From positions 4,042-68,041 of the forward strand of contig JAZLBO010000006.1 of the NCBI GenBank assembly GCA_045613765.1: a stretch of 64,000 nucleotides of DNA, given 5' to 3'. The DNA is from Clostridia bacterium. Lineage in GTDB: Bacteria > Bacillota > Clostridia > Christensenellales > CAG-917. The notes beneath the pieces were generated by a model, which was not told where the DNA came from, made no database searches, and worked only from the letters and a program-made list of their open reading frames with translations. The position numbers and the translations under genes are program-made. Positions 2,741 through 63,004 of this stretch are shown piece by piece; the first letter of the stretch is position 1; every line of letters starts with the position of its first letter.

Positions 2741-3586
2741 TTACACACCTGAGTATGATGCAAAGCCACAGTCGATGGGAAGGACGACACCTGTGATTGC
2801 TGATGCAGACTTGTCATCACAAAGGAAGAGTGTGCCACCAAGAAGTTCGCTTGCGTCAACAAAACGTCCCATAGGTGTGCCTTTCAAGATCTTTTCGCTA
2901 CGTGCTGTGGGTGTGCCATCTTCGTTGTAGAGAAGTTTGTAATTTTGTGCTGACACCAAAAATCCGGGTGCGATTGCATTGCAACGGATGCCTGTGCCTG
3001 CAAAGTGTGTTGCAAGCCATTGTGTAAAGTTGGAGATGCCTGCCTTTGCTGCTGAATATGCAGGAATTTTGGTGAGAGGTGTGTATGCGTTCATTGATGA
3101 AACGTTGAGGATACAACCACTCTTCTTTTCAACCATATCTTTTGCAAATGCTTGTGTGGGAAGAAGTGTGCCTTGGAAGTTGAGTTTGAAGACGAAATCT
3201 ACACCGTCTGCTGAAAGGTCAAAGAAAGACTTTCCACCTTCTTTTGCTTCGTGTTGATATTCGTTGTCTGTGGTTGCTCTGGGGTTGTTGCCACCTGCAC
3301 CGTTGACAAGGATATCGCAAGCACCAAGGTCACGAAGGACTGCTTGATGCACTTCTTCAAGAGAAACGGGATCAAGGACGTTTGCCTTGTAACCTTCACA
3401 GACAAAGCCTTCTGCCTTCAATTCTTCTGCAAGTGCCTTGACTGCATCTTCATTAAGGTCAAGGGCTGCAACCTTTGCGCCTGATTGAGCAAATGCTCTT
3501 GCCATTGCGCCACAGATAAGTCCACCTGCACCTGTGACAACCACTACTTTTCCACTGAAATCTACGTTGATGGGAAGTTGTATCAT
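2741..3586 (-). CDS. uxuB: SDR-family D-mannonate oxidoreductase (fructuronate reductase type)
   Basis: 281 aa. Rossmann motif VVVVTGAGGLICGAMA and SDR Y/K region SAYSAAKAG. Sits between uxuA and eda. Confidence 0.75.
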   Translation of the reverse strand: MIQLPINVDFSGKVVVVTGAGGLICGAMARAFAQSGAKVAALDLNEDAVKALAEELKAEGFVCEGYKANVLDPVSLEEVHQAVLRDLGACDILVNGAGGNNPRATTDNEYQHEAKEGGKSFFDLSADGVDFVFKLNFQGTLLPTQAFAKDMVEKKSGCILNVSSMNAYTPLTKIPAYSAAKAGISNFTQWLATHFAGTGIRCNAIAPGFLVSAQNYKLLYNEDGTPTARSEKILKGTPMGRFVDASELLGGTLFLCDDKSASAITGVVLPIDCGFASYSGV

Positions 3587-3689
3587 TTATATGTTCTCCT
3601 TATCATTAAATCAATATAACATTTTAATTTGTTTTGATAAATTTGTTTGTGTTTTTGAATATTTTGTTTGTTTTGAGTGTTCTAACCGA

Positions 3690-4778
3690 CTATTTTTTGT
3701 CAAACTTTTCAAGGCTATCCCACACGCCGAGCATATACATTATGCCGAGAGCACGGTCATAAAGTCCATAGCCGGGACGTACCTTGCCGGGAACTTCGTC
3801 CCAAAGGTGTCTGCCGTGGTCGGGACGGATGTATCCTTCAAAGCCACAATCGTGATATGCTTTGAGGATTTCAAGAATGCCTGTATCTCCGTCACAATCT
3901 CTATGGCTTGCCTCTGAAAAATCACCGTTTTCAAAGTGCTTGACGTTTCTTATGTGTGCAAATGCAATTCTATCGCAGTGCTTGCGTACGATTTCTGCCA
4001 CGTTGTTGTTGGGGTCTGCATTAAGACTGCCAGAACAAAGGGTAAGACAGTTGTATTCATCATCAACCATCTTGAGAAATCTGTCAATATTTGCCTCGTT
4101 GACAAGAAGTCTGGGAAGACCAAAGATATCCCAAGGGGGATCATCCATGTGGATTGCCATCTTAATGTCACACTCACGGCAAGTGGGCATAATTGCTTCA
4201 AGGAAGTATTTGAGATTTGCCCAAAGTTTTTCGTGGTCGATACCTTCATATGCCTTGAAAAGTTCATCAAGTTTTGCCATACGTTCAGGCTCCCAACCGG
4301 GGAAAGACATATTGTACTTTTCTGTGAAGTCAAGGATGTACTTTGCCATTGCATTGTAGTCATCTTGGATCATATTCTTTTGGTAGAAAAGTGCCGTTGA
4401 GCCGTCGCCTACGGGGTGGAAAAGATCACTTCTTGTCCAGTCAAAGATGGGCATAAAGTTATAACATATAACTTTGACACCAAATTTTGAAAGGTTGCGG
4501 ATGGTTGTCTTGTAGTTTTCAATGTAGCCATCTCTTGTGGGAAGACCAATCTTGATGTCGTCGTGCACGTTGACTGATTCTACAACGTCCATATTGAAGC
4601 CGTATTCATCAAATTGTGCTTTGACTTCAGCGATTTCTTCTTCTGTCCACACTTCGCCGGGAAGTTTGTGATGAAGTGCCCACACGATTCCGTCAACACC
4701 GGGAATTTGCTTGATGTCACTGAGTTTTATGCGATCATTTCCTTCGCCATACCAGCGAAAAGTCATTTTCATTGGCAT
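3690..4778 (-). CDS. uxuA: Mannonate dehydratase
   Basis: 362 aa. MKMTFRWYGEGND... N-terminus is characteristic of UxuA. AAGGAGAA RBS 7 nt upstream. Confidence 0.92.
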   Translation of the reverse strand: MPMKMTFRWYGEGNDRIKLSDIKQIPGVDGIVWALHHKLPGEVWTEEEIAEVKAQFDEYGFNMDVVESVNVHDDIKIGLPTRDGYIENYKTTIRNLSKFGVKVICYNFMPIFDWTRSDLFHPVGDGSTALFYQKNMIQDDYNAMAKYILDFTEKYNMSFPGWEPERMAKLDELFKAYEGIDHEKLWANLKYFLEAIMPTCRECDIKMAIHMDDPPWDIFGLPRLLVNEANIDRFLKMVDDEYNCLTLCSGSLNADPNNNVAEIVRKHCDRIAFAHIRNVKHFENGDFSEASHRDCDGDTGILEILKAYHDCGFEGYIRPDHGRHLWDEVPGKVRPGYGLYDRALGIMYMLGVWDSLEKFDKK

Positions 4779-7702: not shown

Positions 7703-9373
7703 ATGAAAAAAAGACAACCCCAATTGGATGCCAATGGCCGTCGCAAATTTGGTATTCTCGACAAACTGGCTTATGCAGCAGGCGATCTTGGCTGTAACAT
7801 GAGTTTTGGTTTGAAGAGTACCGTCCAAACATTCTGGCTCATCTATATGGCCATGGAAACCGGTATCCTTTCTGCACTTCTCTTGGTCGTTCAAATTTGG
7901 GACGCAATCAATGACCCCATTATCGGCACAATTATTGACGCAGACAAGCGCAAGTACAAACTTGGCAAATTCAAGACCTATATCTTGATTGGCGCAATTG
8001 GTCTTATCGTCGGTGGCGCAATGGTATTCTTGCCCTTCCCCAATGCAGATCTCTGGCTCAAGTGTGTTCTCTTCATCCTTGGCTATATCGTTTGGGACGC
8101 AGCATACACAATGGCAAACGTGCCTTACGGCTCAATGCTTTCATTGGTCTCAGAAGACGCATCAGAAAGAGCACAACTTTCAACATGGCGTTCAATCGGC
8201 TCAATGATCGGCAATATCCTTCCCGGTGTTATCCTTCCCTTCCTTATCTGGCACAATGAAGTTGATGCAGCAGGCAATCCTATCATCAACCCCGAAACAG
8301 GAAAACAAGTTCAAACCCTCATGGGCGACAGAGTTTTCTGGGCAGCACTCATTATGGGTGTCCTTGGATTTGCATGCTTTATGTTTATGATCAAAGGCAT
8401 CACAATCCGTGCAGACGAATATTCAGTCAAAACAAATGAAGGTGGCGGAAAATTCAACGTAGGCAAAGCATTTGTCAACTTTATAAAGAACCGTCCTGCA
8501 GTTGGCGCAACTGTTGCAGCAATGGGTATGTTCCTTGGTATGCAATCTGCAACAACAGCAAATACAGTTATGTTTGCAACATACTTTGGCAAGGCAGAAT
8601 GGGCAGGCCTTGTCATGGCAATAGGTTTTGTGCCTATGTTCGTATTTATGCCCTTCGTAAAGAAACTTGTTGATAAGTTCGGCAAGAAAGAAGCATCAAC
8701 AGTTGGCACGTTGGTTTCAGTCCTTGGTGGCGCAGTCATGATGATCTTCCCCGCAATCAAGAACACTGACGCAGCACTTGCTGTCTATATGGTTGCTCTC
8801 GTTCTCTTTGGTCTTGGCATGGGCTTCTACACCTGTGTTTCATGGGCACTCATGGGCGACGCAATCGACTACAACGAATGGAAGACAGGTCAACGTGAAG
8901 AAGGCACAGTCTATTCACTCCACTCATTCTTCCGTAAACTTGCACAAGGTGTTGGACCCTCAATCGTCCTTCTCATCATGGGCGCACTCGGTTACGTTTC
9001 AGCACTTGGCACAGAAGGTCAATCATTTGAAACATCACACAATATGTGCTGGCTCGTTGCAGGCCTCTATCTCTTCAGTGCAGTTGTTCAATTTATCGGT
9101 ATTGGCGTCATCTACAACATTGACAAGAAGACTCTCATCAAGATGACAGAAGAACTCCAAGAACAACGCAAACTCAACGCAGAACAAGAAGCACAAGAAA
9201 ACGGCGAAGTTGCAGAAGGCGAAGAAAATGTTGAAACAGAAGACAACGTCTTCACAACAGAAGAAGATCCTTGTGGACAATGTGATGTTCCTGAAGTTGA
9301 AATGCCTGAATTGGAATCACCCGAATTCCCCGTGGTCGAATTCCCCGAAATTATTGACAACGATAAAGAATAA
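7703..9373 (+). CDS. GPH/MFS-family glycoside-pentoside-hexuronide:cation symporter (glucuronide transporter-like) with a ~70-aa acidic C-terminal tail
   Basis: 556 aa. N-terminus KFGILDKLAYAAGDLGCNMSF and a multi-TM profile typical of MelB/GusB-type carriers. Adjacent to the GH2 gene. AGGGAGAA RBS. Confidence 0.8.
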   Translation: MKKRQPQLDANGRRKFGILDKLAYAAGDLGCNMSFGLKSTVQTFWLIYMAMETGILSALLLVVQIWDAINDPIIGTIIDADKRKYKLGKFKTYILIGAIGLIVGGAMVFLPFPNADLWLKCVLFILGYIVWDAAYTMANVPYGSMLSLVSEDASERAQLSTWRSIGSMIGNILPGVILPFLIWHNEVDAAGNPIINPETGKQVQTLMGDRVFWAALIMGVLGFACFMFMIKGITIRADEYSVKTNEGGGKFNVGKAFVNFIKNRPAVGATVAAMGMFLGMQSATTANTVMFATYFGKAEWAGLVMAIGFVPMFVFMPFVKKLVDKFGKKEASTVGTLVSVLGGAVMMIFPAIKNTDAALAVYMVALVLFGLGMGFYTCVSWALMGDAIDYNEWKTGQREEGTVYSLHSFFRKLAQGVGPSIVLLIMGALGYVSALGTEGQSFETSHNMCWLVAGLYLFSAVVQFIGIGVIYNIDKKTLIKMTEELQEQRKLNAEQEAQENGEVAEGEENVETEDNVFTTEEDPCGQCDVPEVEMPELESPEFPVVEFPEIIDNDKE

Positions 9374-9392
9374 TCACTGAACTTAAAACTTG

Positions 9393-9422
9393 GGCGTCCG
9401 TTCGTTTGGACGGACGCCTTTT
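9393..9422 (+). terminator. Intrinsic terminator after the transporter gene
   Basis: 9-bp stem GGCGTCCGT / ACGGACGCC (9393-9401, 9410-9418) followed by TTTT. Confidence 0.75.
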
Positions 9423-9476
9423 ATAAGGCTTTTATATTTGATATTGGGATATACCAATATATAATAAGGAGAAAAT

Positions 9477-11759
9477 ATGAGAAAAATAATCAATCTCAAT
9501 GAAAACTGGTTATTTGTCAAAGATACAACAGACATCACTCGCAATGACGGTGTAGCACTCAATCTGCCCCACTCTTGGAACGCAGAAGACGGCTATGACG
9601 GTGGCAACGACTACTTCCGTGGATCATGCCTTTATTCAAAGAAACTTGTCAAGGCAGAACTTCCTGAAAGCGACCTTTACTATCTTGAATTTAGAGGCAC
9701 AAACGCATCAGCAGACGTTTATGTCAACGGCAAGAAACTTGCTCATCACGATGGTGGCTATTCAACATGGCGTGTCAACATCACTGAGGAACTCACTGAT
9801 GAAACAGAAATCGCAGTCCTTGTTGAAAATACAATCAACGAAACAGTTTATCCCCAAATGGCAGACTTCACTTTCTACGGTGGTATTTACCGTGATGTGA
9901 ACCTTGTCTGCGTCAATGATGCTCACTTTGACCTTGACTACTATGGTGCACCTGGAATCCAAATTACGCCTACAGTCAACGGCACAAAGGCATCAGTTGA
10001 AGTGGTTGCTTACGTCAAGAACTTGAAAGACGGTCAATCACTTGCCTACACTCTCTACGATAAGGAAGAAAATGAACTTCAAAAGGTGGAAACAACAGAC
10101 ACAACTGTCACCTTTGAAATTGAAAACGTACATCTCTGGCACGGACGCAAAGACCCCTATCTCTACTGCTGTGAAGTTGAAATAGTGGAAAACGGCCAAG
10201 TTCTTGACAATGTTTGCAGTCGTTTTGGTTGCCGTACATTTGTCATTGACCCCAACAACGGATTTATCCTCAATGGTGAAGAATATCCTCTCCGTGGCGT
10301 ATCACGTCACCAAGACAGAACTGGTGTTGGCAATGCTCTCCTTAAGGAACATCACGAAGAAGACATTGAACTCATTTGTGAAATGGGCGCAACAACAATC
10401 CGTCTTGCACACTATCAACACGATCAATACTTCTATGATCTTTGTGACGAAAAGGGCTTGGTCATCTGGGCAGAAATCCCCTACATTTCAAGACACATGC
10501 CCACAGGCCGTGAAAACACAATCTCACAAATGAAGGAATTGGTTGCTCAAAACTACAACCACCCCAGTATTGTTGTTTGGGGACTTTCAAACGAAATCTC
10601 AATCGCAGGATCAGACGAAGATTTGCTTGAAAACCATCGCATCTTGAACGATCTCGTTCACAGCATGGACAAGACACGTCTTACAACCATTGCAGCAGTT
10701 TCAATGTGCAAGATGGAAGATCCTTATCTCCAAATCCCCGACGTCGTTTCATACAACCACTACTTCGGTTGGTACGGTGGCGAAACATCAATGAACGGCC
10801 CTTGGTTTGACAAATTCCATGCAATGCACCCCAACATCCCTATCGGTTGCTCCGAATATGGTTGCGAAGCATTGAACTGGCACACAAGCGACCCCAGACA
10901 AGGCGACTACACCGAAGAATATCAAGCATACTATCACGAAGAACTCATCAAACAACTTTACACAAGAAAGTATATCTGGGCAACTCACGTATGGAATATG
11001 TTTGACTTTGGCGCAGATGCAAGAGCAGAAGGTGGCGAAAACGGTCAAAACCACAAAGGTCTTGTGACAATGGATAGAAAGTACAAGAAAGACTCTTTCT
11101 ATGCATACAAGGCATGGTTGGTGTCCCCCGAAGTCGATCCTTTTGTACACCTTTGTGGCAAGAGATACGTCGACAGAGTTGAAGACGTGACAAAGGTTAC
11201 AGTGTACTCCAACCTTCCTGAAGTTGAACTTTTCGTCAACGGCGAAAGCCTTGGCAAAAAGACTGCAGATGACCACTTCTTCTACTTTGACGTCCCCAAC
11301 GTTGGCGAAAGCACAATCGTTGCAAAGGCAGGCGAACTCACAGACGAAGGTCACATCCGCAAAGTCGACGAAATGAATATGGATTACGTCCTTGTTGAAA
11401 AGGGTGCAGTGCTCAACTGGTTTGACGTCAATGCTCCTGAAGGCAGATTCTCACTCAACGACAAGATTGCAGACATTATGTCATCTTTCCGTGGCAAACT
11501 TTGGTTCTTGGGTGTCGGTCTTCAAATCAAGAAACAAATGGACGCAAACAAGAAAGGCAAGAAAGGCGAAAAGAACTCCGGTGGATTTGAGGTTGATCTC
11601 AAGGCAGACGGTGGCATCATGCAAATGATGGGCAGCTTTACAGTCCTTCGTTTGACAAGTATGATGGGTATGATGAACATCTCATTTACAAAGGAAGAAC
11701 TCCTTAAGATGAACAAAAAACTCAATCGTATTAGAAAGCCCAAAAACAAGAAAAACTAA
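9477..11759 (+). CDS. Glycoside hydrolase family 2, beta-glucuronidase-like, with a ~150-aa Lys/Met-rich C-terminal extension
   Basis: 760 aa. GH2 catalytic regions WGLSNEIS and CSEYGCEA, NHYFGWYGG, and an N-x-K-G motif (GQNHKGLVTMDRKYKK) matching the glucuronate-recognising NxK of characterised GUS enzymes. Sits in a glucuronate-catabolism neighbourhood. Confidence 0.8.
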   Translation: MRKIINLNENWLFVKDTTDITRNDGVALNLPHSWNAEDGYDGGNDYFRGSCLYSKKLVKAELPESDLYYLEFRGTNASADVYVNGKKLAHHDGGYSTWRVNITEELTDETEIAVLVENTINETVYPQMADFTFYGGIYRDVNLVCVNDAHFDLDYYGAPGIQITPTVNGTKASVEVVAYVKNLKDGQSLAYTLYDKEENELQKVETTDTTVTFEIENVHLWHGRKDPYLYCCEVEIVENGQVLDNVCSRFGCRTFVIDPNNGFILNGEEYPLRGVSRHQDRTGVGNALLKEHHEEDIELICEMGATTIRLAHYQHDQYFYDLCDEKGLVIWAEIPYISRHMPTGRENTISQMKELVAQNYNHPSIVVWGLSNEISIAGSDEDLLENHRILNDLVHSMDKTRLTTIAAVSMCKMEDPYLQIPDVVSYNHYFGWYGGETSMNGPWFDKFHAMHPNIPIGCSEYGCEALNWHTSDPRQGDYTEEYQAYYHEELIKQLYTRKYIWATHVWNMFDFGADARAEGGENGQNHKGLVTMDRKYKKDSFYAYKAWLVSPEVDPFVHLCGKRYVDRVEDVTKVTVYSNLPEVELFVNGESLGKKTADDHFFYFDVPNVGESTIVAKAGELTDEGHIRKVDEMNMDYVLVEKGAVLNWFDVNAPEGRFSLNDKIADIMSSFRGKLWFLGVGLQIKKQMDANKKGKKGEKNSGGFEVDLKADGGIMQMMGSFTVLRLTSMMGMMNISFTKEELLKMNKKLNRIRKPKNKKN

Positions 11760-11805
11760 TCTTCAAAGATAAAACCAATATCTCCATTTTATTTAAGAAA
11801 AAAGC

Positions 11806-11838
11806 AAAAAGCAGACTTTATGGTCTGCTTTTTGTTTT
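11806..11838. terminator. Bidirectional intrinsic terminator
   Basis: AAAAA-GCAGAC-tttatg-GTCTGC-TTTTTGTTTTT, with an A-run and a T-run on either side of the stem. Confidence 0.75.
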
Positions 11839-12133
11839 TGTAAACACTTGCTTTGAGAAAGTTTTATAATCCAATTCAATAGCGCAAAGTGAGTGCGAAC
11901 ATGTCTATTCAGGATCCCCCCCCCTTCCTCATGTGTTTCCCCCCATTTGCCTACGGCAAAGCCCTGCGGGCAGGGGACACACTCGGCACGCGCACATTAG
12001 GGATATTCCTCTCATTATGTCACTTGCCACTTGGGTGGGAAAAATAGGATTCCCAAGTGGCTGGCGTACTTTCGTCTGGTGCTTGGCACTCGCTATGTCG
12101 CCACCCTGTGGCTCCCGTTCCGTCTTCGTATAA

Positions 12134-12408
12134 GTGAGTGCTTGTATAAGTACCCCACGAACTTGCCGTAAAACCCTACTTTTCGGAAGATTCGTGAATC
12201 TCCCCTACAGGGAGTTTATAAATCATCCCACCATTTGGGAAGATGTCATTATCATTTGATTGATGTACAATTTCTTTTTTCGTTGGTATGAGTTTGAGTT
12301 TGGCAGTAGGGGCGATTCACGAATCGCCCGATATAATTACACCAAAATGTGCCATAGGCACAATTCATGCAACGCAGTTGCAATTCATTGCACTATAAGC
12401 ACACTCAC
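12134..12408. repeat. Nested long inverted repeat
   Basis: Inner arms 12185-12208 (GGAAGATTCGTGAATCTCCCCTAC) and 12306-12329 (GTAGGGGCGATTCACGAATCGCCC) pair at 21/24 positions around a 97-nt spacer. Outer arms GTGAGTGCTTGTATA (12134-) and TATAAGCACACTCAC (-12408) pair with a 2-nt bulge. Confidence 0.7.
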
Positions 12409-12615
12409 AAAAAACTGCGATATTTAGATGCATGACGAGAAAGAAAAACCCACACGGGTCGTGGCGTACTTGTCGTACGCGAGAATCGTGTGGGTTGTAT
12501 CTGTAAGGAACGAGGTGACGGAATAGCGCATTGCTACGGTTTACCGTCAATCGCGTCCAAAGTCAGGCGCTAAATAGCGTGAATTTAAGTGGTGGATGTT
12601 TGCAGTCTGCTTTTT
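12399..12615. repeat. Tandem unit A of a paralogous structured element
   Basis: 5' block GCACACTCACAAAAAACTGCGATATTTAGATG; stem CCCACACG (12449-56) / CGTGTGGG (12487-94) enclosing GTACTTGTCGTAC (12466-78); 3' block CGCTAAATAGCG (12568-79); T5 at 12611-15. Confidence 0.6.
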
Positions 12616-12618
12616 AAT

Positions 12619-12754
12619 GCACTCACTAAAAACTGTGATATTTAGATGAAGAACAAGAAAGGCACTTTTAGATCAGTCCGCAGTGTACTTGTCGTACATA
12701 AGGATTGAAATAAAAGTGCCTGCCGAAGTTATTCGCTAAATAGCGCAGTTTTTT
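12619..12754. repeat. Tandem unit B of the same element
   Basis: 5' block GCACTCACTAAAAACTGTGATATTTAGATG; stem GGCACTTTT (12661-69) / AAAAGTGCC (12712-20) enclosing the identical GTACTTGTCGTAC (12685-97); an 18-bp closing stem 12628-45 / 12736-53 (1 mismatch, 1 GU); T6 overlaps the stop codon of the neighbouring gene. Confidence 0.6.
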
Positions 12755-14411
12755 ACACTTCGAAACAACTGCCCCCTACAAACTCACGAAGGATTGAGTT
12801 GCAAGGGATGACGCTTTCATCTTCAAGGGGTTTGAAGTACTTGAGATATTTGATGAGTCTGTTTGCAATGACGTATTGAGGATCGGTGGGTTTGATCTCT
12901 TTGAGTGCAGGCATTGCTTGTTTTCTGAGGACACAGAGTTCATAAAGCAATGATGAGTTGAACACAAAGTTGACGCCTTCTTGATGGGGATAAATCCATC
13001 TAAACTCGCCGTTGCGCACTGACTTCCACATATCAATTGTTGTTGCTGCGCTTGCGCCACGATGTTTCATATCACGGACGATTCTGCGAATAAGACGAAC
13101 GTCTGTGGTTGACAATGGTGCATGGTCATCAATGTTGATTTGTGCTTGTGGTGCAATGAAGATCTTAAACTTTTGATGTTTGGGGATTGATGATGTAAGT
13201 TGCTCGTTGAGTGCGTGTATGCCTTCAATGATGATGGGGCTATCGCTGTCAACTCTGATGGTCTTGCCCGCCTCTCTTTGACCTGTCTTGAAGTTGAAAT
13301 ACGGAAGTGTGACTTCTTCTCCGTTGATAAGGTCATACAAGTCCTTATTGAACTGCTCTACGTCAAGGGTGTTGACGTGTTCAAGGTCTATTTCTGCAAG
13401 GGACACACCTTGGATTTTGCAGATCTCTGCCTTTGGAAGATAATAGTCATCCATTGAGATCATGACGGGCTTGATGCCTCTTGACAACAATTCTATGCGC
13501 AAACGGTTGCAGAAGGTGGTCTTACCACTTGAACTGGGGCCTGCGATACCGATAAGACGGATGTTTTCCTTTTCCTTTTCAATGGCGTTGCCCAATTCTG
13601 AGAGCATGTGGTTGTGACGCGCTTCGCAGAGTTGAACGAAATCTCTGGGATTGCCTTGGATGATCTTTTTGTTGATGCTGACGATTGTCTGCACGCCAAC
13701 CTTCTTTGACCATTGATATGCGTTTTGAAGTGTTTTTCCGTAGGTTGTTTCCTCTTGGAATTCAGGAATTGTTGCTCCCAATTCGTGACGAGGATATTGG
13801 ATGATCATACCGGGGCTATAGGGGGAGATGCGATAGTTTTTGATTGCACCCGTTGATGAAACCATATAGCCGTGCAAATAGTCGCAGTACTCTGCACACT
13901 TGTAAAGGTGGACGGTGGATTCGGGACGGAATTCCAAGATTTCCATTTTGTCGAGATGGCCGAACTTGGTATATACTTCCTTTGCCTCCTCCGTGCTGAC
14001 AACAACACGGTCAATGAAAAGGTCTTCTGCGATAATCTTTTCCACTTCTCTCTTGATGGGCTCAGTGGCTCTTGACATATTAAAGCCGGGGGTCAATGAT
14101 TGGCAGAAGATTGCACGTGATACGTTATAACTGAAACGCACTTGCACGTCAGGGTACAATCTATGGAAAGCCATTGCCACCACAAAGCGAAGGCTGGTTT
14201 CGTATGCCTTTGACGCCTCCTCGTGATCAAGACCAAGGAGTGTGATTTCTTCTCCGTCATTTTTGTTGGTCAGTTGATAGTTGAGTTCCTTGATGACAGA
14301 ACCAACTTTGCAGATGATAAAGTCGTCCTTTTGGTTTTCGGGGATAAGGTCGATGACTCTTTGTCCCTTGTTGACGGCTACCGTTTTGCCGTTGATGATT
14401 ACGTTGAACAT
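12753..14411 (-). CDS. Uridine/nucleoside kinase-family protein with N-terminal TGS and ThrRS-like second additional domain
   Basis: 552 aa. TGS-like start MFNVIINGKTVAVNKGQRVIDLI and the uridine-kinase P-loop IGIAGPSSSGKTTF. AGGGAGAA RBS. Confidence 0.8.
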   Translation of the reverse strand: MFNVIINGKTVAVNKGQRVIDLIPENQKDDFIICKVGSVIKELNYQLTNKNDGEEITLLGLDHEEASKAYETSLRFVVAMAFHRLYPDVQVRFSYNVSRAIFCQSLTPGFNMSRATEPIKREVEKIIAEDLFIDRVVVSTEEAKEVYTKFGHLDKMEILEFRPESTVHLYKCAEYCDYLHGYMVSSTGAIKNYRISPYSPGMIIQYPRHELGATIPEFQEETTYGKTLQNAYQWSKKVGVQTIVSINKKIIQGNPRDFVQLCEARHNHMLSELGNAIEKEKENIRLIGIAGPSSSGKTTFCNRLRIELLSRGIKPVMISMDDYYLPKAEICKIQGVSLAEIDLEHVNTLDVEQFNKDLYDLINGEEVTLPYFNFKTGQREAGKTIRVDSDSPIIIEGIHALNEQLTSSIPKHQKFKIFIAPQAQINIDDHAPLSTTDVRLIRRIVRDMKHRGASAATTIDMWKSVRNGEFRWIYPHQEGVNFVFNSSLLYELCVLRKQAMPALKEIKPTDPQYVIANRLIKYLKYFKPLEDESVIPCNSILREFVGGSCFEV

Positions 14412-36052: not shown

Positions 36053-36149
36053 AAATGTATTCTCCTTAAAATAAATATTTCAAAATTTTTGTGGCAAGAG
36101 ATAGTAAACTATGCGTTCATGTACGCATATACACGTGCCACAGATAGAA

Positions 36150-36178
36150 ATTTTAGCACAAATTCCAGAAAATAGCAA
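36150..36178 (-). promoter_or_regulatory. Candidate sigma-A promoter of pgk-tpiA-gpmI
   Basis: Minus strand reads TTGCTA (36173-78), 17 nt, then TGcTAAAAT (hexamer 36150-55). Confidence 0.5.
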
Positions 36179-36191
36179 GAAAAATCTCATT

Positions 36192-36209
36192 TAGACAAAT
36201 ATTTGTCTA
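36192..36209. promoter_or_regulatory. Perfect 18-bp palindrome TAGACAAATATTTGTCTA, candidate operator
   Basis: Lies 14 nt upstream of the candidate -35. An extra half-site TTTAGACAA recurs at 36231-39. Confidence 0.45.
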
Positions 36210-36244
36210 TAACCAACAAAAAACTCGCAAATTTAGACAAGAGC

Positions 36245-36417
36245 AAATTCCCACGATTTATGATCCCAAGCTGCAGACACGCTCACGTCTGGCGCTTGAA
36301 AGTCGCTTTCACATCATGGGCGACAACGAGAATAAAATCGCCGTCCATCGCTCACGGCTTGCGCGTCAGGTCTTTGAAACAATCAAGTGCTTGCGTTAGA
36401 ACCCTTGCCCAATCCAT
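36245..36417 (-). pseudogene. Relic of a histidine-phosphatase (PGM/cobC-like) gene
   Basis: A single minus-strand frame reads MDWARVLTQALDCFKDLTRKP*AMDGDFILVVAHDVKATFKRQT*ACLQLGI, with two in-frame TGA codons (36352-54, 36283-85). It resembles the ..R....L......G..VLVV.HG region of that family. No RBS or extended ORF. Confidence 0.35.
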
Positions 36418-36434
36418 AACACAAATAAAACACC

Positions 36435-36566
36435 GTACACTTATCGTGTTATTATGGGGTTATATTGTACACTTTTCGTGTTTTTATATATTTCAAATAC
36501 GGGTAAATAGGCTTGATTTTGGCAGTTTTGGCGATTTTTGTCCACATTTAATACACTTATCGTGTT
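36435..36566. repeat. Three copies of the 16-nt motif (G/A)TACACTT(A/T)TCGTGTT
   Basis: Copies at 36435-50, 36467-82 and 36551-66. Each contains the ACAC-N5-GTGT inverted half-sites and is followed by a T/A-rich tail. Confidence 0.6.
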
Positions 36567-36652
36567 TTATTACAAAAATGGTGTCTTTTATATTTTGAGT
36601 TGTTTTCTTTGTTTCCAAGAACAAAATTCCGTAAAATTGACATATAATTGAC

Positions 36653-36684
36653 ACAAAAAAAGACAACCCGTCGGTTGTCTTTTG
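36653..36684 (-). terminator. Intrinsic terminator after trmL
   Basis: A8-GACAACC-cgtc-GGTTGTC-TTTT. On the minus strand the stem is followed by a T-run of 7-8. Confidence 0.8.
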
Positions 36685-36744
36685 ATCTTTTTATTTCTGT
36701 GAGCGCGATTTATTGGCTCTTCTTTTTAGTATTTTTGATTAATT

Positions 36745-37233: not shown

Positions 37234-37258
37234 AATAATCCACTATTGTCTTTCGTTT

Positions 37259-37798
37259 TTAGTTGTTTTTGTTGGTTTTGACCCAAAATCTTTTGAGATT
37301 GACTTGTTCATCTGGCTCAAAAACAGTCGATTCGTACACGCCACCGTTGGCACGTATGACCTTTTCACTGCCTATATTGTCATCATTGCAAGTGATAAGC
37401 ACTTTGTCAAGTCCTATACTACTACAAAATGGCAAAACCATTTTGAGCATCTCTGTTCCATATCTTTTTCTTCTTTCGGTGGGGCGAATTGAATAGCCAA
37501 TATGTCCTGCATATTTTTCAAGATACTCATTGAAATAGTGTCTTACTTGAATCATACCAACTATTTTGCTATCACTCTTTCTTACAAACATAAACTGAGT
37601 TGCAATAACTCTTCCTTCAGGCAAGGTTTCTTTCTTCTCATAATTTCTGCACTTTGCTATGTAGTCATAAGGATTTTCCATAACCCTCAATGAGCCTGTG
37701 CCGTCCATTGAACTGCCCATATCAAGCATTTCCTGACGATAATCTGCAATTTGACTTGCATATTCCTCTGAAACTTTTACTAAAATAAATTCTTCCAT
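37259..37798 (-). CDS. GNAT-family N-acetyltransferase
   Basis: The track ORF runs to 37957 and would overlap dus by ~100 nt. I prefer the ATG at 37798 (MEEFILVKVSEEYA...). Acetyl-CoA motif region IRPTERRKRYGTEML. Confidence 0.7.
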   Translation of the reverse strand: MEEFILVKVSEEYASQIADYRQEMLDMGSSMDGTGSLRVMENPYDYIAKCRNYEKKETLPEGRVIATQFMFVRKSDSKIVGMIQVRHYFNEYLEKYAGHIGYSIRPTERRKRYGTEMLKMVLPFCSSIGLDKVLITCNDDNIGSEKVIRANGGVYESTVFEPDEQVNLKRFWVKTNKNN

Positions 37799-37859
37799 AT
37801 CCTTAATTGTACAAAATTGTTTAATATCTTTATCTGTATCTGTGTTTGCAATTATAAAA

Positions 37860-62370: not shown

Positions 62371-62556
62371 ATATCACCAAAAATTTGTATTTCTTATAAA
62401 TGCTTGACAATAATACCAATTTATACCAAAAAATGCAAACATTTTTGCATAAAATTTGCAAAATAACAAAATTATTTTGAATATCTCATATTTTATGCAA
62501 TTTTGGGCGATTTTTATACATTTATAAATATTTTTTGCTCTTTTTATTTGCAAAAT

Positions 62557-62587
62557 AAAAAACCCGACCGATTGGTCGGGCTTTTTA
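62557..62587 (-). terminator. Intrinsic terminator after acpP
   Basis: CCCGACC-gatt-GGTCGGG (62563-80). On the minus strand it is followed by T6. Confidence 0.8.
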
Positions 62588-62600
62588 CAACTTTCAAAAA

Positions 62601-62834
62601 TTAGTTTTGCTTTGCTTCGATAAGTTTCACAACGTCGCCAACTGTCTTGATGTCAATTGCTTCTGCATTGTCAAATTCAAAACCATATTTGTTTTCAACG
62701 TTCATAAGCATTTCAACCATATCAAGGCTATCGCAACCAATGTCATCAGTGATGTTTGTGTCTTCGGTGATGGATGCAGGATCGCAACCCATTTGTTCAA
62801 CGATGATTTCTCTGAGTTCTTCAAAAATTGCCAT
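62601..62834 (-). CDS. acpP: Acyl carrier protein
   Basis: 77 aa. DIGCDSLDMVEMLM with the phosphopantetheine-attachment Ser. AAGGAGAA RBS. Confidence 0.9.
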   Translation of the reverse strand: MAIFEELREIIVEQMGCDPASITEDTNITDDIGCDSLDMVEMLMNVENKYGFEFDNAEAIDIKTVGDVVKLIEAKQN

Positions 62835-62972
62835 TTTATTCTCCTTGTGCCTTACGGCTATTTTTTCTATTTATTGCAACGGTGTTGCTGTTGTTTTTTA
62901 TTTATCGGTGGGTGTATATACTACCCTTTAGGCTTTGGCAGTTGCCTTCTCGCTGTTGAGCCCATTTGTATC

Positions 62973-63001
62973 ATTATAATACACTTTCAAGAAAATTTCA
63001 A
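62973..63001 (-). promoter_or_regulatory. Candidate sigma-A promoter for acpP
   Basis: Minus strand reads TTGAAA (62996-63001), 17 nt, then TATAAT (62973-78), giving a ~135-nt leader. Confidence 0.5.
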
Positions 63002-63004
63002 GTA

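Follow-up and report, generated by a model that had tools for sequence, protein, structure and literature searches.

Extragenic hairpins of the REP/BIME type lie in 3' untranslated regions (3' UTRs) or between convergent genes and stabilise the upstream mRNA, and the REPINs, of about 100 nucleotides (nt), consist of two inverted repeats. The attC sites of integrons are imperfect hairpins of 57 to 141 nt, which are more conserved in structure than in sequence; in a fixed orientation, they follow directly on the stop codon of the preceding gene and in many cases overlap with it. The structured repeats known from bacteria include REP/BIME, ERIC, Correia, BOX/RUP/SPRITE and bcr1 (PMC3184786). ERIC, also called IRU, is an imperfect palindrome of 127 bp with TA at both ends that is found in transcribed intergenic regions, and bcr1 of the Bacillus cereus group is a transcribed element of about 155 bp in which compensatory changes keep the RNA structure and whose distribution among strains is not conserved (PMC3184786). 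SPRITE of S. pneumoniae, about 105 bp long and present in about 30 copies per genome, has AAAA/TTTT ends and forms a long duplex with a U-rich tract; it is enriched beside the 3' ends of convergent genes, and has been proposed to be co-opted as a terminator (PMC3049150). Here, we describe an intergenic interval in a stretch of 64,000 nt from a Clostridia bacterium (contig JAZLBO010000006.1), referred to as the window, which contains two units of a family of long hairpins that we call rods, and a second conserved non-coding sequence that we call module X.

The interval is a mosaic of separate small structured repeat modules and not one large RNA, because the modules recur elsewhere in other combinations, orders and orientations, and the 0.9 kb was in no case conserved as a unit. 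This is the sense in which the "composite palindromic element" that had been suggested for the interval from its letters alone, in what we refer to as the sequence-only reading, was borne out. For the rods, the interpretation that we prefer, with modest confidence, is that they are terminator-like or 3'-end-protecting hairpins that act in cis, within a nest of small repeat modules that are reshuffled among loci.

Rod repeats at the ends of genes

The two rods and the adjoining gene were located as follows (coordinates within the window):

12410-12587, no strand assigned: rod unit 1, the gene-distal member of the tandem pair, subfamily GCATGAC (covariance model R1, 93 bits, E 8e-20; I2)
12503-12558, plus strand: mini-hairpin of 56 nt, GTAAGGAACG..GCGATTG..CAATCGC..GTCC, inside unit 1 (nhmmer, E 2e-18)
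12588-12627, no strand assigned: inter-rod linker, clade-specific ..GTTTGCAGTCTGCTTTTTAATGCACTCACT, which bears the inverted AGTGAGTGC motif (I7, I8, I10)
12628-12753, no strand assigned: rod unit 2, gene-proximal and complete, subfamily GAAGAAC (R1, 129 bits, E 3e-28)
12753-14411, minus strand: PRK/uridine-kinase-family gene of 552 amino acids, stop codon at 12753-12755 (Pfam PF00485, E 2e-19); the 3' end of its mRNA would carry both rods

Two tandem units with covariation and a nested inverted repeat had already been recognised in the sequence-only reading; both are present, and the units covary with each other. They have the ends AAAAACTG(C/T)GATATTTAGATG... and ...CGCTAAATAGCG and the apex GTACTTGTCGTAC in common, while their middles differ yet are paired in each. 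The minimum free energy of unit 2 was -54.7 kcal/mol on the plus strand and -43.5 kcal/mol on the minus strand. The 3' basal arm of unit 1 is degraded (CGTGAATTT), and its 5' arm (12409-12427) instead has a counterpart of 95% complementarity at the end of unit 2 (12736-12754). It was also noted that in arrays of 3 to 4 rods at 3 other loci (L027 5716-6090, L013 1070-1320 and L016 3716-4221) the 3' half of the basal stem was kept by the gene-proximal copy only. In such arrays, pairing between the outermost 5' arm and the last 3' arm would be possible and would enclose the array, as with the two segments in the window.

Further copies were sought with the 21-mer AAAAACTGYGATATTTAGATG as a seed against contigs from one genome per species, which yielded 37 loci, nearly all of them in metagenome-assembled genomes (MAGs) of uncultured Clostridia. 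The titles of these MAGs included Christensenella sp. UBA7588, UBA767 and UBA6880; CP091723; and Firmicutes bacterium CAG:475 and CAG:238, and rods were also present in UMGS1043, RGIG5583 (sheep colon) and SGB_7393. Several MAGs contained multiple copies, some of them in tandem at a spacing of 118 to 166 nt, and many copies were located at contig ends. The modules of the interval are specific to a lineage of Clostridia from gut and rumen that is uncultured and whose public MAGs mostly bear the label "Clostridia bacterium" or "Christensenella sp.". Model R1, trained on 36 copies, identified 63 unique copies over all fetched loci, and only the 2 listed above in the window. Unit 1 showed 86% to 91% identity over about 95 to 103 nt to copies in L012, L004, L026, L009 and L024, with the highest value for the 5' ~95 nt in L012, and unit 2 was 91% identical over its whole length to L030:3886-4010. 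The linker is of the type that forms the conserved left flank of rods in L022, L017, L024, L026, L030, L033 and L009.

The rod folds as a single long imperfect hairpin of 124 to 127 nt, or of 177 nt in copies with an insert of about 52 nt. In the model-based alignment A5, standard pairs were present in 95.4% of the cells and both sides changed in 30 of the 39 pairs; the fit to the model favours structure in this alignment, but the effect remains large, and a MAFFT alignment had already shown compensation in 22 of the 39 pairs. The covariation score was 0.469, versus 0.145 in column shuffles (none of 500 reached the observed value) and at most 0.10 when the partners were slid by 1 to 3 columns. 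Homologues with covarying pairs, which the sequence-only reading had expected of a structured element, were thus found for the rods.

The arms of the rod are inverted copies of a sequence of about 27 nt, which are A+T-rich and heterogeneous. The basal arms vary yet stay paired, with AAAACTGCGCTATTTAGCG, AAAACCGTCTGATTGAGCG, AAAATTGTGTGATTGAGCG and AAAAGCGCACCAAATCGCG each accompanied by a matching partner, and contig L097 alone carries two different versions of the arms. What stays constant in the rod is the sequence of its internal loops and its apex, together with an A.G mismatch and a U.G pair, the latter present in 62 of the 63 copies. Because the helices covary while the loops stay fixed, the rod resembles a selected hairpin and not a set of transposase-bound terminal repeats, and selection appears to keep the family in this form. 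Inspection of the conserved loops by eye revealed no K-turn, sarcin-ricin or attC core motifs.

The most regular feature of the family is its position. Among the first 36 copies, 27 had one constant end at most 2 nt from the stop codon of a long convergent open reading frame (ORF), and no gene ended at the other arm. In the full set, 45 of the 63 unique copies were directly adjacent to the stop codon that ends a long ORF, at an offset of -4 to +2. All of these had one and the same arm next to the gene and a single orientation, and the gene-proximal arm was GCGCTATTTAGCGAATAAC or a covarying variant in every one of them. The remaining copies were mostly distal members of tandem arrays, and for a few the nearest end of an ORF was over 200 nt away. 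The abutted stop codons were TAA in 44 cases and TAG in 1, against a background of 60% TAA (binomial P ~4e-9); counted by the approximately 20 distinct gene families instead, P was ~5e-4 by our own arithmetic. The RNA in the sense of the upstream gene reads gene-UAA-AAACUGCGCUAUUUAGCG..., so that the A residues of the stop codon belong to the basal stem.

The same arrangement was seen in the window, where the T-run of unit 2 (12749-12754) overlaps the TAA stop codon of the kinase gene on the minus strand. The C-terminus of the kinase, EFVGGSCFEV*, is equal in length to the EFIGGSCFNV* of its orthologues, which indicates that the rod starts at the native stop codon. The orthologous kinase genes were followed by short conventional hairpins or by nothing, with neither the rod nor the array past the stop codon, and the presence of a rod at the kinase gene in the window is therefore not ancestral to the gene family. 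Genes upstream of rods at the other loci include those for GAPDH, ribosomal protein L1, GroEL, rubrerythrin, [FeFe]-hydrogenase, class II fructose-bisphosphate aldolase, PNPase, uracil phosphoribosyltransferase and UMP kinase. Such housekeeping genes are typically highly expressed.

Terminator-like architecture and the question of strand

The basal stem CUGCG/CGCAG has A5 on one side and U5-6 on the other, that is, a G+C-closed hairpin followed by a U-run, and the 3' tails of 10 nt contained a mean of 5.7 T when read in the plus sense and of 5.5 T when read in the gene sense (62 copies). Judged by these features, the rod has the architecture of a putative intrinsic terminator that can be read in both directions and has a very long stem. 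In the mechanism that we propose, it would act in cis, both as an intrinsic terminator of extended length that works in two directions and as a hairpin that protects the 3' end. On the minus strand of the window, it would both terminate and stabilise the kinase mRNA, and on the plus strand it would stop transcription from the side of the GH2 glycosidase gene and module X before this enters the kinase gene in antisense. Copies would be passed among loci by recombination or another copy mechanism. If so, the rods would represent a compact, portable two-way module from a little-known lineage, and an example of terminators that spread as repeats.

Several points weigh against this interpretation. 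We infer termination and stabilisation from the architecture alone, and the stem, with about 50 paired positions, far exceeds that of normal intrinsic terminators. The strictly fixed orientation is unaccounted for if the rod is a symmetrical two-way terminator, and the near-fixed U.G pair and the lower folding energies point slightly towards the strand that is antisense to the upstream gene. The loops and the apex are conserved beyond what a terminator needs, which suggests a bound factor. Finally, the sample of loci is biased by the seed 21-mer, and orthologous loci were counted repeatedly.

A more far-reaching proposal, which we consider doubtful, is that the rods constitute a new class of stop-codon-anchored element, either an RNA of the 3' UTR that is read by a factor, or a genetic element specific for structure, with stop codons as its homing sites and one orientation. 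The combination of covariation with conserved loops, exact anchoring at stop codons, location at the ends of housekeeping genes and reshuffling between near-identical strains is unusual. In its 3'-UTR form, if true, a lineage-specific factor would read the loops, the wobble pair and the apex, and translation termination on highly expressed genes would be tied to the fate of the mRNA.

The strand preference bears on a different explanation, namely that the rods function as RNAs of the opposite sense (plus in the window), antisense to the 3' UTR of the upstream gene. They would be made as the 3' part or terminator of transcripts from neighbouring non-coding DNA such as module X, and would work as protein-binding or antisense small RNAs and not as the terminator of the gene itself. 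The plus-sense fold was the more stable in 29 of the 36 copies (mean -4.2 kcal/mol), and in the clade of the window by 8 to 12 kcal/mol. The U.G pair at columns 21-168 of A5 (62 of 63 copies) and a G.U pair at columns 58-77 (21 of 63 copies) would turn into C.A or A.C mismatches if read in the gene sense. Furthermore, the mini-hairpin insert keeps a constant orientation to the plus sense in rods and in minus-oriented copies of module X, X(-), and in six loci X(-) runs straight into the rod.

Standard pairs on the common structure amounted to 95.4% in the plus sense versus 92.5% in the gene sense, and the gap came from the fixed U.G and the one G.U column; the alignment had been fitted to a model of the plus strand, which introduces a bias in the same direction. 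Outside the fixed wobble, there was no real asymmetry, with 50 G.T versus 42 A.C; a strand-neutral self-alignment gave 129 versus 106. The wobble asymmetry is thus weak and ambiguous, and the strand is not assignable from it. No conserved promoter was found upstream of the rods, whose left flanks differ by clade, and for an independent RNA it is difficult to see why it should be tied so strictly to the stop codon of the convergent gene. The gene-sense RNA, on the other hand, must exist as a 3' UTR because no terminator intervenes between the stop codon and the rod, and it is almost certainly made. Taken together, we regard the opposite-sense RNA as unlikely.

Turnover and spread of the modules

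Comparisons of closely related strains showed that rods can differ where the adjoining genes are nearly identical. In the rod located after groEL in L085 (3153-3279) and L083 (3024-3150), the basal arms were shared and the GroEL tails and flanks were 98% to 100% identical, whereas the central ~80 nt came from a different rod subfamily, a patch replacement with its borders in the conserved internal loop. Loci with p179 or Upp tails that were 97% to 100% identical bore entirely different rods, and the tandem copy number varied between close strains. At the same time, copies with 94% to 97% identity were found beside unrelated genes, both within and between the RGIG5583 and SGB_7393 MAGs. The copy at L033 3855-3979 is a chimera with the 5' half of one subfamily and the 3' half of another, joined at the conserved apex, and its hairpin is consequently broken.

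The turnover among strains and the near-identical copies at unrelated loci imply that rods are exchanged by recombination or another copying process. The two units in the window are 52% identical to each other, and with their close matches elsewhere and the strain turnover this indicates that the pair was assembled from two old subfamilies and did not arise by local duplication.

These patterns could also be those of mobile or recombinogenic DNA of the MITE (miniature inverted-repeat transposable element), REPIN or attC type, the folded single-stranded DNA being recognised by a transposase or recombinase encoded elsewhere and the likeness to a terminator being incidental or secondarily co-opted. 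The multiple, assembly-breaking copies and the tandem arrays of variable number would be as expected, and so would the near-identical copies at non-orthologous loci, the chimeric and patch-replaced copies, the orthologues that differ in the presence or absence of a rod, and wobble pairs that lack clear strand asymmetry. Many copies have TA at both ends (TA-AAAAC..GTTTT-TA, or TAAAAAC...GTTTTTA in full), and ERIC is likewise an imperfect palindrome of 127 bp with TA flanks (PMC3184786). Yet the TA flanks are not universal (they are absent, for example, in L009, L015, L025 and L037), and a TA target alone would not yield 45 of 45 stop placements in one orientation. The terminal arms are unconserved even within one contig (L097) and covary, unlike transposase-bound repeats. 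Among 221 neighbouring ORFs at 37 loci, no transposase- or integrase-like gene recurred, and clustering gave housekeeping families only.

The searches beyond the cellular genomes pointed in the same direction. No match was obtained to phage and plasmid collections with BLAST in distant mode, and a degenerate purine-rich rod pattern retrieved 66 loci from viral contigs, all of them chance matches and none fitting model R1. The attC cores RYYYAAC/GTTRRRY were likewise missing from the rods, which have housekeeping neighbours. We therefore consider mobile DNA an improbable explanation of the family as a whole, although a process of exchange, as described above, is part of the terminator-like interpretation.

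The conserved terminal inverted repeats of a classical MITE were not present: the rod ends are complementary to each other, but vary between copies with compensating changes in the partner. The "ordinary MITE cluster" named as an alternative in the sequence-only reading fits poorly for related reasons: repeat copies do exist, but they are few and divergent, their terminal arms are unconserved in sequence, and their placement is tied to stop codons.

A second level of turnover concerns the mini-hairpin that is nested in unit 1. Its length across copies was 48 to 56 nt. It was found at the matching rod site (G^CC or G^AC, on the 3' strand of the lower internal loop) in L013, L017, L025 and L089, and, within module X, at a single fixed position in L001, L010, L030, L047, L077, L083 and L084, with an orientation that was constant relative to the plus sense of the rod and the minus sense of X. 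It was present in L083, L084 and L077 (~3547-3596) and missing in L085 and L092, the flanks being ~100% identical. The mini-hairpin thus seems to behave as a separately mobile or optional hairpin. Together with the patch replacements, it provides markers that separate very close strains. The rods also have a practical consequence, in that they break MAG assemblies, many being located at contig ends, and can be mistaken for novel large RNAs.

Module X, the remaining interval and related repeat systems

The other features of the interval and its left neighbour were the following:

9477-11759, plus strand: GH2 glycosidase gene, left neighbour, convergent on the gap
11800-11839, no strand assigned: bidirectional intrinsic terminator with A-run, 12-bp stem GCAGAC.. 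and T-run (inverted repeat I5; scan match on the minus strand, 11834-11805)
11841-11870, plus strand: promoter-like TAAACA-18-TATAAT (10 of 12 matches)
11861-12165, no strand assigned: module X, conserved non-coding, ~280-300 nt (nhmmer, ~20 loci from several MAG lineages)
11887-11896, plus strand: left copy of AAGTGAGTGC, at the start of X (direct repeat D12)
12014-12041, minus strand: promoter-like TTCCCA-16-CATAAT preceded by TG, on the invariant core of X
12132-12141, plus strand: right copy of AAGTGAGTGC, in the right part of X (direct repeat)
12183-12331, no strand assigned: long inverted repeat I1 with 48-nt arms, 73% complementary and 53 nt apart, which includes the small hairpins GGAAGATTCGTGAATCTCC and GGGCGATTCACGAATCGCCC
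12348-12362, minus strand: small hairpin TGTGCCTATGGCACA, then TTTTGG, weakly terminator-like

Module X contains a core of about 42 nt, TCGGCAC.CGCA.A.TAGGG....T.CTC.TTATGCCAC, which is invariant and located at ~11978-12024. It also contains hairpins at 12026-35/12052-61 and at 12111-12124 (GCCACC-ctg-TGGC), and alignment A4 showed compensated hairpins. The loci with X include L004, L009, L010, L012, L018, L020, L021, L030, L031, L037, L080, L084, L085 and L088. X was always located gene-distal of the rods and occurred in either orientation; apart from the six loci in which X(-) runs into the rod, X(+) faced the rod in eight, including the window. A coding function was rejected, as the core contained single-base indels and the small ORF MFAL.. 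was conserved neither in length nor outside the clade of the window. Short hairpins of the type GGGTGTGGGTGTCCCACCC or GTGCGGGTGTCCCGCCC were noted beside rods and X in the "Christensenella sp." MAGs (L029 ~150-230, L006 ~4735-4760, L018 and L031), and look like another small repeat.

The motif AAGTGAGTGC had been read twice in plus orientation and twice inverted in the sequence-only reading. The plus copies at 11887 and 12132 are exact, whereas the inverted copy at 12619-12628 has 1 mismatch and that at 12399 is approximate (GCACACTCAC) and was missed at a threshold of at most 1 mismatch. In L004, L009 and L030, AAGTGAGTGC precedes GAACAT at the start of X, and a variant, GCGAAGTGC, was found in L012. 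The pair of direct copies was ruled out as a target-site duplication of X, since the conservation of X extends to ~12165, past the right copy; other clades were without the motif.

The perfect TATAAT at 11865-70 is present as described earlier, with TAAACA 18 nt upstream. A plus-strand transcript that starts from it, as had been suggested, is possible, but the box is not conserved: a good TATAAT box was seen in this window only, and other copies of X have a terminator or a rod at most 30 nt upstream of X. In the plus sense, X contains C-rich tracts. On the minus strand, where the core has the form of an extended -10 box (TGnCATAAT), the CATTATGCCAC columns of the promoter-like site at 12014-12041 were invariant or nearly so in 15 copies of X, and in the clade of the window a terminator or a rod followed within ~130 to 190 nt in 5 of 5 copies. 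A minus-strand RNA of ~200 nt from this site to the terminator at 11800-11839 is plausible, and X may be a small-RNA gene. The terminator, which begins 40 nt past the GH2 stop codon and had been correctly identified as bidirectional, would also end any other minus-strand transcript of X, and a homologous arrangement of terminator and X was found in L030, L009 and L012. If the rods did form a new class of element anchored at stop codons, RNAs or DNAs of this kind would be the targets of the mini-hairpin, which would then be a mobile insert of exceptionally small size, and X would be a small-RNA gene travelling along.

The gap itself, estimated earlier at ~990 nt, measures 993 nt (11760-12752), and is the largest intergenic gap in the window, followed by gaps of 692, 634 and 626 nt. 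Its ORFs do not exceed 66 amino acids. The earlier count of 159 G+C in 300 nt at 11901-12200 was exact, and the enrichment is local, with a G+C fraction of 0.55 at 11900-12099 versus 45.7% in the whole interval and 42.2% in the window. The next gaps between ORFs of at least 120 amino acids, 36053-36744 (692 nt), 62371-63004 (634 nt) and 37234-37859 (626 nt), contained no rod by model R1. In the surrounding region (9000-14400), C exceeded G on the coding strands of both the GH2 gene (plus) and the kinase gene (minus), so that the GC skew tracks the coding strand and is unusable for inferring the direction of replication.

Between X and the rods, the long inverted repeat at 12183-12331 was not conserved at the fetched loci, apart from a stretch of 25 nt that matched L017. 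The shared segment is the small perfect hairpin GGGCGATTCACGAATCGCCC (12312-12331) with CCCTAC/GTAGGG adjoining, located at 1042-1066 in this unrelated locus of the sheep-colon MAG, and may represent a further short repeat family. The hairpins named in the sequence-only reading, the one in X at 12026-35/12052-61 and GTGCC-ata-GGCAC at 12349-61, were both recovered.

That the ~0.9 kb constitutes a single large ornate structured non-coding RNA, in the class of OLE, GOLLD, ROOL or raiA as had been proposed from its letters, is now very improbable. The interval is gene-free and locally G+C-rich, has a TATAAT box at its left edge, and folds far beyond shuffles over 12166-12760: relative to dinucleotide shuffles, the z values on the two strands were -7.6/-8.1 for 12395-12760 and -5.0/-4.9 for 12166-12409. 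In contrast, the left part, 11878-12170, folds weakly (-2.2/-1.3), the middle part, 12166-12409, is not conserved, the modules recur singly elsewhere, and the kinase orthologues are without the interval. A search of the whole window with Rfam 15 and cmscan gave no match at the gathering score, and none was obtained in 14 related loci (96 kb). At E<=10, the segment 11700-12900 yielded sub-threshold terminator-like matches at 11733-11916, corresponding to the GH2 terminator, and two weak chance matches.

The rod family is found neither in Rfam nor in the phage and plasmid collections that were searched; for uncultured gut Firmicutes, structured repeats between genes are in general poorly charted. 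By analogy with the described repeats, the rods seem closest to SPRITE in design, and to ERIC in size and shape. With SPRITE they share the A/T-run ends, the long stem with a U-rich tail and the placement at 3' ends, a match by description and not by sequence. They differ in that the rods are fully paired over ~125 nt, with conserved loops and apex and with covariation that includes the basal arms, overlap the stop codon in one fixed orientation, and belong to a different class of bacteria. ERIC is an imperfect palindrome of similar size, and some of its copies carry extra insertions at fixed internal sites, as does rod unit 1. The ERIC consensus is, however, conserved throughout, whereas the rod helices vary and covary; ERIC also belongs to a different phylum, is variable in its orientation to genes, and is not anchored on stop codons.

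The bcr1 element is, like the rods, a Firmicute repeat with compensatory changes, but it consists of two independent stem-loops with 5-bp direct-repeat flanks, whereas the rod is one long hairpin that is anchored at the stop codon and has no clear target duplication. REPs are short, G+C-rich, uniform within a genome and tied to RAYT, while the rod arms are heterogeneous within a genome. No Y1-transposase-like (RAYT) neighbour was present among the 221 ORFs of the fetched loci, and full-text literature searches on REP-, REPIN- or RAYT-type repeats in Firmicutes or Clostridia returned nothing relevant. Integron attC sites were rejected as a match, since the rod ends read TAAAAAC/GTTTTTA or, for example, AAAAGC../..CTTTT, the neighbours are housekeeping genes and not cassettes, and no integron integrase was found in the fetched loci. 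What sets the rods apart from the known repeats is the combination of helices that covary, arms included, around conserved loops, the overlap with the stop codon, the fixed orientation and the modular replacement of the centre.

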